Source: a candidate division FCPU426 bacterium
Lineage (GTDB): Bacteria; Oederibacteriota; JAAXVQ01; JAUVAV01
Assembly: GCA_040756875.1 (NCBI GenBank)
Contig: JBFLYH010000002.1
Span: 510,526 to 574,525, forward strand
Direction of reading: 5' to 3'
DNA length: 64,000 bases
Position numbers: made by a program. Of this stretch, positions 12,001 to 24,000 are shown piece after piece; within the stretch, counting starts at the first letter, position 1; every line of letters begins with the position of its first letter.

Positions 12001-15000
12001 GACCGCGGAATCCGTGACGAACAGCAGCCGGCTGCAGGGCTTGCTTTCCAGGATGAACACGTGGGAGATGATCGCGTCTTCCGGCCGCAGCCCGTAGTCC
12101 TTATGCAGCAGCGCGGAAACGATGGTGCTGGTGTGCAGGTTGCCCTTCATCAGGAGCTGCGCGTCGCCGTCGGCGATCATGCGCACGGCCGCGTGGGCCG
12201 CGCTCTGCTCGTCGCGGGCGTCCACCTGCTTGCGGACCGGGAAGGTCAGCTTAAGTTCCTTGCGCAGGGCCTCGATCTTGTCCGCGTCCCCGGCCCACAC
12301 CACCTCCACGATGCCTTCCCGGACCGCGCGGTCCAGGGACTGCAGGATCTCCTTGGATTCCGGCACGGCCACCGAGATGGTCTTGCGGGGCCGCCCCCGT
12401 GTCAGGGACACCAGTTCGTCGAATGAACGCAGCATGAGATTATCCTTTCCGGTTTTTACGCCAGGTCAGAATGCTCCGGGCGATTTGTTCGGGCGTGGAG
12501 TGGTCCGTGGGGCACTGCCAGTCCGCGCGGGCGTAGGCGGCCTGCCGTTCCGCCAGCAGGGTTTGAATGCGATGGCGGACCTCGTTTTCGCTGCCGGCCA
12601 GCAGCGGGCGGTCCGGGGCCAGGCCCACGCGCCGCCAAATGCAATCAGGAGAGGCGGTCAGGCACACCACGTCGCCGAGCCGGCGCAGCAGCGGCCAGTT
12701 GGCCTCGCGCAGCACGATGCCGCCGCCCGTGGCCACGACCCGGGCCGGCTGGCCGGACGCGGCCAGCCCCGTCAGCACGCGCGTTTCCCATTCGCGGAAA
12801 GCCGCTTCGCTGTCTTCGGTGAATATGCGCGTAATGGGTTTTCCGGCCTGCTGGACGATCAGGTCGTCCGTATCGACCCAGGCCAGGCGCAGGTGTTGGG
12901 CCAGAAGGCGCCCCACCTCGGTCTTGCCCGTGCCCATGAATCCCACCAACACCACACCTTTAATCATCGGCCTGTTTCTTTTAGCATGAAGTTCCGCGCA
13001 GCAAACTGCGCGGGGCATAGGCAAAGGGGACCGTTCCAGAGTGAACGATTGTTCTGCGTTACCGCCTGGCCACGGCGCGCCGGTAGGCGCGCAAATTCTC
13101 CGCCATTTCGCGGACCGAATCGCCGCCGAATTTTTCCTGGTAGGCCTTGGCCAGTTCCAGGGCCAGCACCGCTTCCCCGACCACAGCTGCGGCCGGCACG
13201 GCGCAGACATCGGAACGCTCGTAGCCCGCGGCCCGGCTTTTCTTGGTGGCGAGGTCCACCGAGGCCAGCGGTTTGCGCAGCGTGGCAATGGGCTTCATGG
13301 CCAGGCGCAGCAGCAGCGGTTCGCCGGTGGTCATGCCGCCTTCCAGGCCGCCGGCATGGTTGGTTTTGCGGCCGAAGCCGCCCCGGCGGTAGTTGATCAC
13401 GTCGTGCACCTGCGACCCGGGCCGGGCCGCGGCGGCAAATCCCTCCCCGAATTCCACGCCTTTGATCGCCGGAATGCTGGCCAGGGCACCGGCCAGGCGC
13501 GCGTCCAGGCGCCGGTCCCAGTGCACGTGGCTGCCCACACCCGGGGCCGCGCCCCAGGCCGAGACCGCGAACACGCCGCCCAGCGTATCTCCGGCGGCTG
13601 CCGCGCGGTCGATGGCCCGGCGCATGCGGCTGGCTGCGGCCGGCTGGGGGCAGCGCACGTCCGAGCGTTCGGCCCGGCGGGCCAGGCTGGCCGGCGCGCC
13701 GGACAAGTTGGCCGCGGCCTCGGACCCAATGCGTTCCACCCAGGAGCCCACGGTCACGCCCAGGGCTTTCAGCAGCGCCTTGGCCGCCGCACCGGCAGCC
13801 ACCCGCGCCGCGGTCTCGCGCGCCGAGGCGCGTTCCAAAATGTCGCGCATGTCCGTGCGCCCGTATTTCAACGCGCCCACCAGATCCGCGTGCCCCGGCC
13901 GGGGCCGGGTCAGGCGGCTGGCGCCCTTCGGCCAGGCCGCGGGTTCCACGGCCATGAGGGCCTGCCAGTTCGCCCAGTCGCGGTTCGGAATCCACAGGGC
14001 CAGCGGCGAACCCAGCGTTTCGCCCAGGCGGACGCCGGCCGTGATCTGGGCCTGGTCGCGTTCGATCTGCATGCGGCCGCCGCGGCCATACCCCTGCTGG
14101 CGCCGCGCCAGGTCCCGGCTGATGTCCCGGGCTGTCAGGGACAGGCCGGCCGGAAGACCTTCCAGCACGACGGTCAGGCCCTGGCCGTGGGATTCTCCGG
14201 CAGTTAGAAATCGCAGCATGACAGGAGGCTCGCTTTCTGACGGGCTATGGATAACGCGGACGCCTTTCGCAGCTCAACCCCGAACATCCACCGCACGCTA
14301 TTCTAAAATATGCGTGGTCAGGAACACCACCAGTTCGACCTTCTTCTTGTTCACCACCGTGCTCCGGAACAGCGCGCCCAGAAGCGGAATGTCGCCGAGC
14401 AGCGGCACCTTCGATTCATCCGTGCTTTCCTCATCCCGCACCATGCCGCCGATGGCGATCGTCTCGCCGTCCTGCACCTGCATCTGCGTGGAAGCCGTGC
14501 GGGTGCTGGTGGGCGGCGGCGTGCCCGGGCCGGTCACGGTCGTGACTGTCAGGGTCATGGGCCCGAGCAGCACGTTGCGGTCCTTGGTGATCTGCGGCGT
14601 CACGGTCAGCGAAATCGGCAGCTCCAGGTAATTGACCTGCGTGCTCACCACGCCGTTGCTCACCAAACTGGTGGTATAGGGCAGGTTCTGGCTGGCGGAC
14701 AGCGTGGCGCTCTGGTTGTTCAAGGTGGCGATGCGGGGATTGGACAGGATGTTGACCTTGCCCTTGGCCTCCAGCGCGGAGAGCGTAGCGTTGAGGTTCC
14801 AACCCTGGGGCAGGGTGCCCACGGTCAGCCGCCCCACGGCATTGACTGCCCGCGGATTCGAACTGATCGAAAGTTGGGGATCGTGGCCGGCTTGATTGGT
14901 CGCATCCCAACGAATGCCCAGGTCCATCTCGTCCGTCCGGCCCACTTCCACGATGCGGGCCTCGATCATCACCTGCTCGGCCTTGGTGTCCAGGCTGCGA

Positions 15001-21000: not shown

Positions 21001-24000
21001 AGGTCCTCGGACTCCACCAGCACCTGCCCCTCCTGGTTCTTGAGCTCTTCGGCCTGGGCGAAGGTCACGTCGAACTCCCGCTGGATTTCGCGGGTGAAAT
21101 TATTGCCCGCCACGGCCACGTCGCGGGTAAGGTGGGTCACGCCGTTTTCCAAAATGTTAATAGTCGTCAGCTTTGCGCCCACGTTGATGAGGCTGATGGT
21201 TTCGTCGGGAATGCGGCCGTAGTTGGTTTCGAAGGCGTTTTGCAGGGCAAAGGTATCCACGTCGATCACGGACGGAGAGAGGCCGGCCATCTGCAGCAGG
21301 TGGATGTGCTGGTCAATGACGTCCTCTTTGGCCGCCACCAGCAGCACCTCGAGTTTCTGGGCGCCTTCCTCCTCCACCTCGCCCAGGATTTCGAAATCCA
21401 GCACCATCTGGTCGATGGCCAGGGGAATGTATTGCTCCGCCTCGTAGTTGATGACGTTTTTCAGCTCCTCCTCGGGCATGTGCGGCATTTTCACGTAGCG
21501 CACAATCACCGAGTCGCCGGAGATCGCGGTGACCACTTGTTTGGCGGTTATCTGGTTGTCTTTGAAGAGTTGTTTCAGCGTGCGGGCCAGGAGTTCGTCG
21601 CGGACCGCGGGGTCCGCTTCCTCCTGGATTTCAGGCGGCACTTCCAGGAAGGCGAGGTTGACCAGCTGGAGTTGTTCCGGGGTTTTTTTTAGCTGTACGG
21701 CCTTGATCGTGTGCGTGCCGATATCCAGGCCGATCAGGTTCTGGCTTTTGAGAAATTGAAACACTCGGGTCTCCTCTCCCAAAGCTACCAACAACCTGAA
21801 TGGGGGCCCCCGGACGCTGCCTTCCCGCCAGGAGGACGTGTATCAACCCTGAAAAAACAATACTTTTTTTTCATCATAAATGAAAAGGCATTGAAAAATC
21901 AACCGAAAAAGAGATTTTCGTATAAATGGCCTAAAACGCTTTTACCCCGGAAGAATGCGCTTGATTTACTTGGGTTTTATTAGATGAAAATAAATCCCCC
22001 ACGATACTGTGGGGTTATGGCTCATTGATAGCCATAGGTTGTATAGGATTGGCCCTTGGTATCTGTAAGCGAACTGTTGATCCAGATCCGGCCGGTATTG
22101 GATTGCATGGGACCGTCGTATCTCCAACCCGCGCCTTCGCTGCCGGGCTTTCCCAAATCAGGTTCATCGGAAAAGGATTTGTAGGTGACGGTATTCCCGG
22201 CCGGGCCTTTCGAGCGGTCCGGTGGAAAGGTGACTTTGACTTTTGGCATGACCGGAAGATATTCGCCGAACCCGTACCCCGGCGTATGGTCATTGACATC
22301 CAGGGTGGTGGGCCACACGCCCTCGTGATCGCCGTAATAGATGGAGATCGCGGCCTTGATCGCGGCAATGTTGGCCCGCGTAGCCGACTCGTTCGCCTTT
22401 TCGCGCCAGGTCTGCAGATAAGGATAAGCCAGGGCGGCTATGATCCCCAGGATCGCGGCCATGACCGCCAGTTCAATAAAGGTAAAGCCCGCTTCCGGTC
22501 TCCGGCAACTCCGCATGATTGCTACATGGTTCCTTTCACCAATTGCTGCAAATCCCGCGGGTCCGTGGTCCGCGAAAAAATCTCGTTGTAGGTCACCAGT
22601 TGTTTTTGGTACAGCTCGTAGAGGGCCTGATTCATGGTCTGCATGCCGTACTCGCCGCCGGTCTGCATCAGCGAATACACCTGGTGTTCCTTCTCTTCGC
22701 GGATCAGGCTCCGGACCGCGGAGGTTGGGATCAGAATCTCGCAGGCCAGCACCCGGCCGGAAGCGTACCCGCGCGGAAGCAATTGCTGGATCAGCACCGC
22801 CTGGAGCACCAGGGACAGCTGCATGCGGACGCGGTATTGCTGGTGCGGTTCGAACGCGTCCACGATCTGGGTGATGGCCTGGACCGAATCCGTGACCGGC
22901 AGGGCTCCGAACACCAGATGCCCGGTCTCCGCCAGCCGCAAGGCCGTGCGCAGGGTGTCGAGGTCGGTCATTTCGCCGAGCAGCACCACGTCGGGGTCGC
23001 AGGAGCGGGTGCTTTTCAGCGCCAGGGTTTGGTTCGGGCTGTCATAACCGATTTCCCGCTGATGCACGATGGCCTTGGCTTTGGCATGCTGGTATTCGAT
23101 CGGATCTTCCAGGGTCAGCACATGCACGGATTTGTTCTGGTTGATCCATTCCACCATGGCGGCCAGGGTGGTGGATTTCCCGGAACCCGTCGGGCCGGCC
23201 ACGATCACCAGGCCTTTGGGCAGCTGGACGATGTCGGAGATGATGGGCGGCAGTCCCAACTCCTCGAACGTGGGCAATTGCAGGGGAATGCCGCGCAGGT
23301 TGGCCGCCACCATGCCGCGCTGTTTGATGACCTGCATGCGGACCCGCCCGATATTCTCCAGGCTGAAGGACACTTTGAGCTCCGCATCCCGCTCGAAACG
23401 GGCGCGCTGCTCGTCCGTAAGCACGCTGAACACCAAGGCCGCGCAGGCCGTGGGCTGCAGCACTTCCAGGTCCGTGGGAACCAGTTCGCCGTCGATGCGC
23501 AGGGCCGGGGGGGAATCAGGGGAGAGATGCAGATCCGAGGCTTTCTTCTCGAACATCAGCCGAATCAAGGCATCCATGGTCAGCATAAAGAGGCCCTCCG
23601 CAGCGTTTGCCAATGGGGCAAACTCATTTCACCTTACACTAAGTAACGGTGTTTTTCAAATCTCTTTTAACCCGCCGGCGGACAGCAATGCTTCCTGCAT
23701 AAGCTTCACGGGCGGTTGTTTGCCCGTCCACAGCCGGAAAGCCTCGGCGCCCTGGCCCAGCAGCATTTTCCAACCCGGAACCACGCGGTTCCGGCGGCGT
23801 TTGGCCAATCGCAGAAACGGCGTCAGCTGTCTGCCATACACCAAGTCATAGACGCAAATGCCTTCCGGCATCCATGGCTCGGGCAGGGGCAGGGGGTCCC
23901 TGGCTTGCAGTCCCAGGGGAGTGGCCTGCACCAGCAAGGCGCACCGGTCCAGGGCACTCCGCAGTTCCGCGGTTCCCGGACGCGCCGCCACGACGGCGGA

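Follow-up and report, generated by a model that had tools for sequence, protein, structure and literature searches.

A type IVa pilus locus retained without its platform protein, peptidase and intact extension ATPase in a class of candidate division FCPU426 bacteria

Passages of PMC10191384 name four core proteins of type IV filament systems, and hold the platform, the peptidase and the extension ATPase to be present in every such system. Parts of these machines have also been described in other settings. In the case of Helicobacter pylori, excerpts of PMC10823254 report that PilMNO work without pili in the surface response, as a cage of the flagellar motor, so that alignment proteins are retained and used without a pilus. 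For Litorilinea aerophila, the relevant passages of PMC13319060 propose an exaptation of alignment proteins, with PilN and PilO encoded beside the archaellum, without PilM, PilP and PilQ and tied to a filament machine. In Myxococcus xanthus, signalling by an ATPase-dead PilB needs no pilus and lies upstream of the Hsp70 StkA (PMC5544727, in extract), within a PilB-StkA/SglK-Dif pathway of EPS signalling that includes Hsp70 paralogues (extracts of PMC4319316 and PMC8265645).

The class described here, whose members are uncultured, differs from each of these systems. It shares with the type IVa pilus machine orthologous pilT, pilin and pilMNOPQ genes at the ancestral aroE-aroC locus, but it is without PilC, PilD and an intact PilB, has one pilin, and its PilT is eroded. 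Compared with what is reported of H. pylori, it also keeps PilP, PilQ, pilin and PilT, and flagella were not found in 8 of its 15 genomes; the L. aerophila case, as far as described, differs in lacking PilM, PilP and PilQ and in its tie to a filament machine. The MshEN-bearing dead PilB reported for M. xanthus is a laboratory mutant, whereas the class has a natural pseudo-ATPase, encoded together with a dedicated DnaK (DnaK2), a J/TPR protein, a pseudo-cyclase receptor and a propeller. A literature search with thin coverage of subscription papers returned no description of the system and no precedent for it; PMC7031533 has no passage on pili.

The window analysed here is a stretch of 64,000 nucleotides of contig JBFLYH010000002.1, in which the pil genes of this genome (G000) lie on the minus strand in the order pilT-pilin-pilMNOP-(two inserted genes)-pilQ (Table 1). 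The inserted pair, with a GC content of 0.38-0.45 against 0.64-0.69 over pilQ, is missing from a genome of the same genus (G032) and is outside the conserved system. No clear lipobox was seen by eye in PilP, either here or in the outgroups. The INLLP motif of PilN has a PilM-binding role. The gap between pilin and pilM contains a sigma70-like site (21902-21873) and a terminator-like hairpin (22014-21997), both near chance expectation for the region.

Table 1. Features of the pil locus, with positions counted within the window
Feature	Position	Strand	Remarks
pilQ secretin, 719 aa	14298..16457	-	Pfam: two AMIN, STN, N-domains, secretin
two inserted genes	16548..19089	-	weak SLT-like match; weak beta-propeller match
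pilP, 137 aa	19131..19544	-	by position and homology; no Pfam match
pilO, 183 aa	19525..20076	-	PF04350
pilN, 193 aa	20073..20654	-	PF05137; N-terminal INLLP motif retained
pilM, 368 aa	20658..21764	-	conservation outgroup-like except residues ~301-360
pilin-pilM gap	21765..22021	.	pilD slot in relatives
type IVa pilin, 164 aa	22022..22516	-	motif G|FTxxE retained; alpha1-N relaxed, head conserved
pilin-pilT junction, 5 bp	22517..22521	.	pilC slot in relatives
degenerate PilT, 354 aa	22522..23586	-	Walker A retained; equivalents of H229, R206 and (here) R194 gone; C-terminal third conserved

The PilC/GspF model TIGR02120 finds a platform protein in none of the 15 class genomes and in 74 of the other 84 genomes of the phylum. 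In G000, a profile of PilC from 30 relatives reached a best E of 0.09, on TadB, and the three-helix topology of PilC was found in none of 2676 ORFs of at least 300 aa, by a screen that recovered 23 of 30 true PilCs; these deep tests concern G000, the other 14 class genomes being covered by library models. T2SSF matches in the class come from an adjacent Tad pair only (two matches in 14 genomes, one in the remaining genome). The initial annotation had claimed that PilC is gone while pilT, pilin, pilMNOPQ and a PilB-like protein stay, and that TadB and TadC are the only T2SSF proteins, and both claims hold, with the model, profile, T2SSF and topology searches all blank for PilC. It had also described pilT as followed directly by the pilin in the class and as neighbouring pilC elsewhere, which extends to 15/15 contiguous class loci and to 20/20 outgroup loci, the latter picked because pilC is present. 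The class locus is common to two families and nine genera, with pilMNOPQ contiguous in 14/15 genomes and PilQ found in all 15; two genomes of genus g9 carry insertions of unrelated genes between pilin and pilM, among which inspection revealed no platform candidate.

Other assembly parts are missing as well. PilD, a prepilin peptidase with the N-terminal domain, is found in 0/15 class genomes and in 70/84 others, and the sole A24 peptidase of G000, a CpaA of 175 aa, is encoded next to flp genes. No intact PilB was found in the class genomes. N-methyl pilins number one in each of three class genomes, in which no minor type IVa pilins were found, as against 4-6 matches in each of three genomes from a second clade of the phylum (families f15-f23). 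Measured against the four core proteins in those passages of PMC10191384, three are missing or degenerate in the class: the platform, the type IVa peptidase and an intact extension ATPase.

PilT is single-copy in 15/15 class genomes and scores 399 with TIGR01420 (cut-off 319), with H229 missing from all 15 proteins and R206 kept in one. Among database PilTs, H229 is found in 0/27 inside the class clade, a set that partly comes from the same genomes, and in 93/93 outside it; for R206 the counts are 2/27 and 93/93. On the other hand, the Walker A lysine, E159, E163, H222, R82 and R97 are retained in 15/15 and the Walker B glutamate in 9/15. The erosion of PilT is heterogeneous among class members. 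In the passages seen of PMC6762196, R206S makes PilT defective and a cytoplasmic orientation is proposed for the AIRNLIRE face, and PMC12607626, likewise in part, reports that H229A PilT is partly functional; with the residues listed above retained, some activity may thus remain in class PilTs. Mean identity within the class and the second clade is 0.59 and 0.89 for the N-domain, 0.61 and 0.86 for the ATPase core, and 0.81 and 0.82 for the C-terminal third, the AroC control giving 0.67 and 0.58.

The retained PilT, pilin and pilMNOPQ are under purifying selection, with dN/dS of 0.02-0.37 over five within-genus pairs (0.13-0.17 for pilQ), similar to or below values for aroE, aroC and recJ. PilQ, PilP, PilN and PilO are conserved at least as well as in the second clade, whose machine is intact. 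The pilin, present in 15/15 class genomes, is recognised as a major pilin with a class III signal peptide; its predicted fold was of low confidence (pLDDT 58) and was left unused. Its alpha1-N helix is relaxed (mean identity 0.64 vs 0.93 in the second clade) and its head conserved (0.68 vs 0.43), a pattern that, judged from sequence, would be the reverse of that expected for a polymerising major pilin. Around the cleavage site, F+1 and E+5 are retained in 15/15 genomes and G-1 in 14/15, which suggests that the pilin is still cleaved, a Tad peptidase being available in the genome. Since the class is without PilD, an intact PilB and additional pilins as well as PilC, and what remains is under purifying selection, the idea of a repurposed, non-standard type IVa apparatus is strengthened.

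The single-copy PilB-like protein of the class (15/15) is encoded on another contig (G000:C1:968560-975698), in an operon with genes for a propeller, a HAMP membrane protein, a J/TPR protein and DnaK2. DnaK2 adjoins the PilB-like gene in 15/15 class genomes, and the five-gene order is complete in 14/15, the contig ending in the remaining one. DnaK2 has the nucleotide-binding domain, linker and beta substrate-binding domain, and its alignment to canonical DnaK covers only residues 1-537 of 636, so that the alpha-helical lid is missing; the part beyond the beta domain measures only 61-73 residues in the 13 class proteins that are complete, and 141 in canonical DnaK. Its C-terminal tail KKKGLFGLFG (13/15 class proteins, the other two truncated or disrupted) is basic and aromatic like the membrane-targeting sequence KGFLKRLFGG of MinD described in part of PMC5471200. 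Here the tail sits on an Hsp70, and membrane binding is a prediction, with a modest hydrophobic moment of about 0.37 (0.35 for the canonical DnaK tail). The HAMP protein is modelled with a cyclase fold (AlphaFold2 pLDDT 82; best Foldseek matches to adenylyl and guanylyl cyclases, E about 1e-13). Class III cyclases carry a second metal Asp (GD) and an N/R pair as catalytic motifs. Neither was seen on visual inspection of HAMP proteins from the class (13) and the second clade (18), and the protein reads as a membrane receptor with a dead class III cyclase fold.

The PilB-like protein falls below the TIGR02538 cut-off (490 vs 676). The arginine after the Walker-B glutamate, the R of RQDPD, two conserved N2-domain residues and the Asp-box spacing are gone in 15/15, and the glutamate itself is retained in 11/15; the motif erosion described in the initial annotation therefore stands for the former and not for the glutamate. 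The MshE-type c-di-GMP motif NF053729 scores 60.9 (cut-off 38), and in MshEN repeat 1 (tandem RLGxxL) the first R and G are retained and the second G is gone in 15/15. Three class genomes each have 11-15 GGDEF matches. The operon is probably tied to c-di-GMP, which the PilB-like protein may bind, although the loss of the second G speaks against this.

The identical five genes occur in identical order in 18/18 second-clade loci, which were picked by their short DnaK, and a propeller orthologue is found in 22/23 second-clade genomes and in none of the other 61. This clade keeps PilC (20/23), PilD (22/23) and canonical PilT, and 7 of 8 genomes checked have PilBs with all five ATPase motifs outside the operon, whose own PilB-like protein is already degenerate. 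The operon is therefore no product of PilC loss. In a quick tree, the operon PilBs of class and second clade form one branch (SH-aLRT 100), whose origin from pilT-linked pilB has weak support (76). The two groups are not joined in a four-protein tree or an RpoB tree, and an AU test with 2000 replicates does not reject their sisterhood (p 0.24). Lacking working PilBs, the class keeps a pseudo-ATPase paralogue, and a working motor was thus not relocated into the operon. Of the earlier claims on this operon, its conserved order and the lidless DnaK are confirmed, while its being part of the class remodelling and the move of PilB into it by the class are not upheld.

What the genomes document is gene loss, gene retention, selection and motif erosion, and the class very probably has no type IVa pilus. 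That a pilus is still built, by slow PilB-like and PilT motors and with a platform and a peptidase that escape detection through divergence or lack of homology, is quite improbable: several catalytic residues persist, and the deep PilC tests concern one genome and library models the rest, but four independent PilC searches are blank, neither PilC nor PilD stands in its syntenic position, minor pilins were not found in three class genomes, and the conserved PilB arginines are gone in 15/15. A decaying remnant, or sequence missing from the assemblies, would fit the fragmentation of some assemblies and the uneven erosion of PilT, but is very improbable: completeness reaches 90% or more in 12/15 genomes, the junction of pilT and pilin is unbroken in 15/15, the locus spans its two families and nine genera, and dN/dS is low; synteny and dN/dS largely rule out decay. 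Least probable of all is a cage around a flagellar motor as in Helicobacter. G000 does have FlhA and chemotaxis genes, and the excerpts of PMC10823254 offer a precedent; yet FlhA is found in only 7/15 genomes, which contradicts such a cage for non-flagellated members, and is missing from two 100%-complete genomes with pil genes, and PilP and PilQ are retained, unlike in H. pylori.

Two further readings are unlikely to a similar degree. CpaA might cleave the type IVa pilin, and CpaF and TadB/C might use it and/or PilMNOPQ, for example in DNA uptake to ComEC. The retained cleavage motif, TadB/C in 15/15 class genomes, intact Walker A, Asp-box and His motifs of CpaF in 4/4 and ComEC in 5/5 class genomes tested are consistent with this; however, Tad is itself equipped with a secretin, CpaB, two Flp pilins and TadE-like genes, the pilin packing helix is relaxed, and the retention of PilT is left unexplained. 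Tad is present in 89/99 genomes of the phylum, so its arrival is not tied to PilC loss and it is ruled out as a class-specific replacement; an SAF search was too unspecific for use. PilMNOPQ might otherwise form a passive gated channel for import or export of DNA, polymers or proteins, which pilin and PilT would plug or stabilise and which would have no part in signalling. The conservation of PilQ, PilP, PilN and PilO, the intact secretin domain and ComEC would suit such a channel, but no energising part is left, and strong conservation of the PilT cytoplasmic face and most of PilM points to cytoplasmic partners.

We tentatively favour, at slightly less than even confidence, a filament-free exapted type IVa scaffold that serves as a sensing or landmark hub, together with a separate chaperone signalling module. 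PilM-N-O-P-Q would form a static envelope-spanning scaffold of secretin, peptidoglycan-binding AMIN domains and inner-membrane cage; the lone pilin would be a membrane-anchored subunit with its head bound to a fixed partner, and PilT an adaptor that binds ATP, hydrolyses it poorly and engages a putative partner through its cytoplasmic C-terminal face. The likeliest job of such a hub would be surface or envelope sensing together with positioning, or anchoring. In the operon, a chain may run from a lipoprotein beta-propeller to the HAMP/pseudo-cyclase receptor, the J-domain/TPR adaptor, the lidless DnaK, predicted to be tethered by its MinD-like membrane tail, and the MshEN pseudo-ATPase; the chaperone module would probably remodel or release the PilB-like protein, a putative binder of c-di-GMP. 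This protein may dock on PilM and so link the two loci; the placement of the operon on a separate contig, and its occurrence where the pilus machine is normal, leave it without a physical tie to pilMNOPQ. A full conversion to a filament-free trans-envelope signalling device, with a pilin sensor held by secretin and cage, a pseudo-PilT adaptor, and readout via a c-di-GMP-binding pseudo-PilB remodelled by a membrane-tethered lidless Hsp70 under a pseudo-cyclase receptor, is doubtful.

All together, the class amounts to a natural experiment in which core parts were dropped while the secretin, the cage, the pilin and part of PilT are conserved, which isolates the non-pilus roles of these proteins and is informative on signalling by type IV pilus machines, a matter still open. 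For expression and testing in laboratory strains, the class further provides a compact module of five genes, among them those for a natural pseudo-PilB and for a DnaK that has no lid but a likely membrane tail.

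The type IVa apparatus of the class (families f1 and f2, with 15 of the 99 genomes in the phylum) has lost its platform: PilC is present in 0/15 class genomes versus 74/84 others, counts that, like all those for the class, describe a single loss event, since related genomes are not independent. The Pfam T2SSF matches in the class are the Tad pair only, as the initial annotation had claimed, and in the genome under study (3.22 Mb, 100% complete) neither a profile built from the PilC of 30 relatives nor a topology screen revealed a PilC. PilD is likewise found in 0/15 class genomes versus 70/84 others, the sole A24 peptidase of the studied genome being the 175-aa CpaA, adjoining two flp genes. 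Each class genome has one PilB-like match, versus at least two in 21/23 genomes of a second clade (families f15-f23), and 3/3 class genomes have one pilin each, versus 4-6 matches in 3/3 second-clade genomes. PilU is missing from the studied genome, because its secretion ATPases are only PilB-like, CpaF and PilT. Excerpts of PMC10191384 give four core proteins for type IV filaments, namely pilin, peptidase, extension ATPase and platform, and the class has lost three of these or keeps them in degenerate form; the observation is real and class-wide, and the apparatus falls outside the working type IVa systems. In several outgroup families PilB paralogues form tandem pairs (loci L138, L139, L144, L146, L150-L152), one member per pair deviating from the RQDPD motif pattern.

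In the window, C2:510526-574525 of the studied genome, the pil genes lie on the minus strand, flanked by aroE and aroC, in the order pilT, one pilin, pilM, N, O, P, two low-GC inserts and pilQ, with 5 bp between pilT and the pilin. Outside the class, pilC directly follows pilT in 20/20 loci, all fetched around pilC matches, in agreement with the earlier description. In the outgroup pilin-pilM gap, PilD was directly seen in 3 of 6 loci inspected; a length/position filter gave no protein at 2 of the 6, and one protein was PilM. For the loss of PilD, the count across the phylum carries more weight. In two genus g9 genomes (L108, L110, L156), 11-14 kb of unrelated genes separate pilin and pilM.

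Location of features in the window, on contigs C1 and C2 of the studied genome, or in numbered loci (L)
Feature	Location	Strand	Description
pilT	window 22522-23586	minus	first of pil locus
pilM	window 20658-21764	minus	residues ~301-360 relaxed in class (0.64-0.69 vs 0.91-0.93), rest conserved
Two low-GC genes	window 16548-19089	minus	weak SLT-like; beta-propeller; between pilP and pilQ, not in same-genus genome
Predicted lipoprotein	window 25300-26388		flanked by dnaJ and rsmE in the loci of the class; TolB-like repeats by eye, no Pfam match; none seen in fetched outgroup loci
Full-length DnaK	C2:538440 (window 27627-29537)		additional to lidless DnaK
Full-length DnaK	C2:594265		additional to lidless DnaK; three DnaK matches in most class genomes
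Operon	C1:968560-975698		five genes, as follows
Operon propeller			predicted lipoprotein, PQQ-type
Operon HAMP protein			two-helix membrane protein, class III cyclase fold, catalytic residues missing
Operon J/TPR protein			J-domain/TPR, HPD present
Operon DnaK			568 aa
Operon PilB-like			MshEN-bearing
HAMP/pseudo-cyclase gene, genome G027	L089:7386-8824		two ORFs (frameshift or assembly error), gene order kept
J/TPR-DnaK pair, family f8	L143:5192-8266; L153:5951-8907		abuts type IVa pilin gene on opposite strand
CpaE-like + CpaF Tad protein	C1:1498079-1500181 (L002)		both domains fused in a single protein of ~700 aa; 4/4 class genomes examined
Open frame	C2:1131482-1134623 (L004, L006, L007)		4835 codons, at end of contig

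The remaining parts are retained. PilT and PilQ occur in 15/15 class genomes, and pilMNOPQ is contiguous in 14/15, the other being broken at contig ends. The erosion is targeted. When 15 class and 21 outgroup PilTs are compared (P. aeruginosa and V. cholerae numbering), H229 is kept in 0/15 versus 21/21, bearing out the His-box erosion noted before, and R206 in 1/15 versus 21/21; the Walker B E persists in 9/15, R194 in 11/15 and D160 in 7/15, and a database set of PilTs gave the same pattern. Walker A K, E159, E163, R176, H222, R82 and R97 are invariant in the class (15/15); for K136, E204, R206 and H229 the numbering comes from published papers. R206S is described as defective in PMC6762196, and H229A as only partly functional in PMC12607626. 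Identity is lower in the N-domain and core and not in the C-terminal third, which carries an AIRNLIRE-like motif, a face proposed in part of PMC6762196 to point towards the cytoplasm. The pilin shows a reversal, with a relaxed packing helix (identity 0.64 in the class versus 0.93) and a conserved head (0.68 versus 0.43). The relaxed PilM stretch possibly corresponds to a lost motor or platform contact.

The five-gene order of the operon is conserved in 14/15 class genomes, one contig ending there, and its DnaK has no lid, both as initially annotated. This DnaK has a conserved basic/aromatic C-terminal tail that by sequence resembles the MinD membrane anchor (MinD sequence from a portion of PMC5471200); a hydrophobic-moment calculation was non-discriminating for the class tail. 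The proposed tie between the operon and PilC loss did not stand: the same operon is found in 18/18 fetched second-clade loci, and its propeller in 22/23 genomes of that clade versus 0/61 others, yet these genomes keep PilC (20/23), PilD (22/23), canonical PilT and intact PilBs (all five motifs in 7/8 genomes checked), so that the operon is independent of the loss. Their operon PilB, at least as degenerate as the class protein, groups with it in a quick tree (SH-aLRT 100). Because a J/TPR and short DnaK pair exists without adjoining PilB in families f8, f11 and f12, the module may have grown stepwise.

Several alternatives have to be considered. A hybrid with the Tad system is unlikely, since Tad is complete, has its own secretin and is phylum-wide; that the remnant is a passive channel is equally unlikely. 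ComEC occurs in 5/5 class genomes tested. The pilin cleavage motif persists, which counts against the reading favoured below. A hidden platform, with pili still being made, is improbable. Decay or artefact is very improbable: dN/dS is 0.02-0.37 for pil and operon genes in five within-genus pairs and 0.08-0.26 for aroE, aroC, dnaJ, rsmE and recJ, four values being undefined from saturation. A flagellar cage is hardly conceivable, as FlhA is found in only 7/15 class genomes.

The lineage is uncultured; close homologues are labelled FCPU426, Firestonebacteria or Goldiibacteriota. As previously stated, no description of the class system was found in the open-access papers searched. In their working, the nearest systems would be the exapted PilMNO of H. 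pylori (PMC10823254) and pilus-independent PilB signalling in M. xanthus (PMC5544727), although, judging from excerpts of both, the parts lists differ. The reading that we tentatively favour, at slightly less than an even chance, is that the class builds no pilus and combines a PilMNOPQ hub with a separate signalling module. What the genomes show is which parts were lost, which were kept and where they eroded; each step of function is inferred. PilMNOPQ would be a static scaffold for sensing or acting as a landmark, with the pilin anchored and PilT serving as an adaptor; the operon would encode a c-di-GMP-linked, chaperone-driven signalling module, which may dock on PilM.
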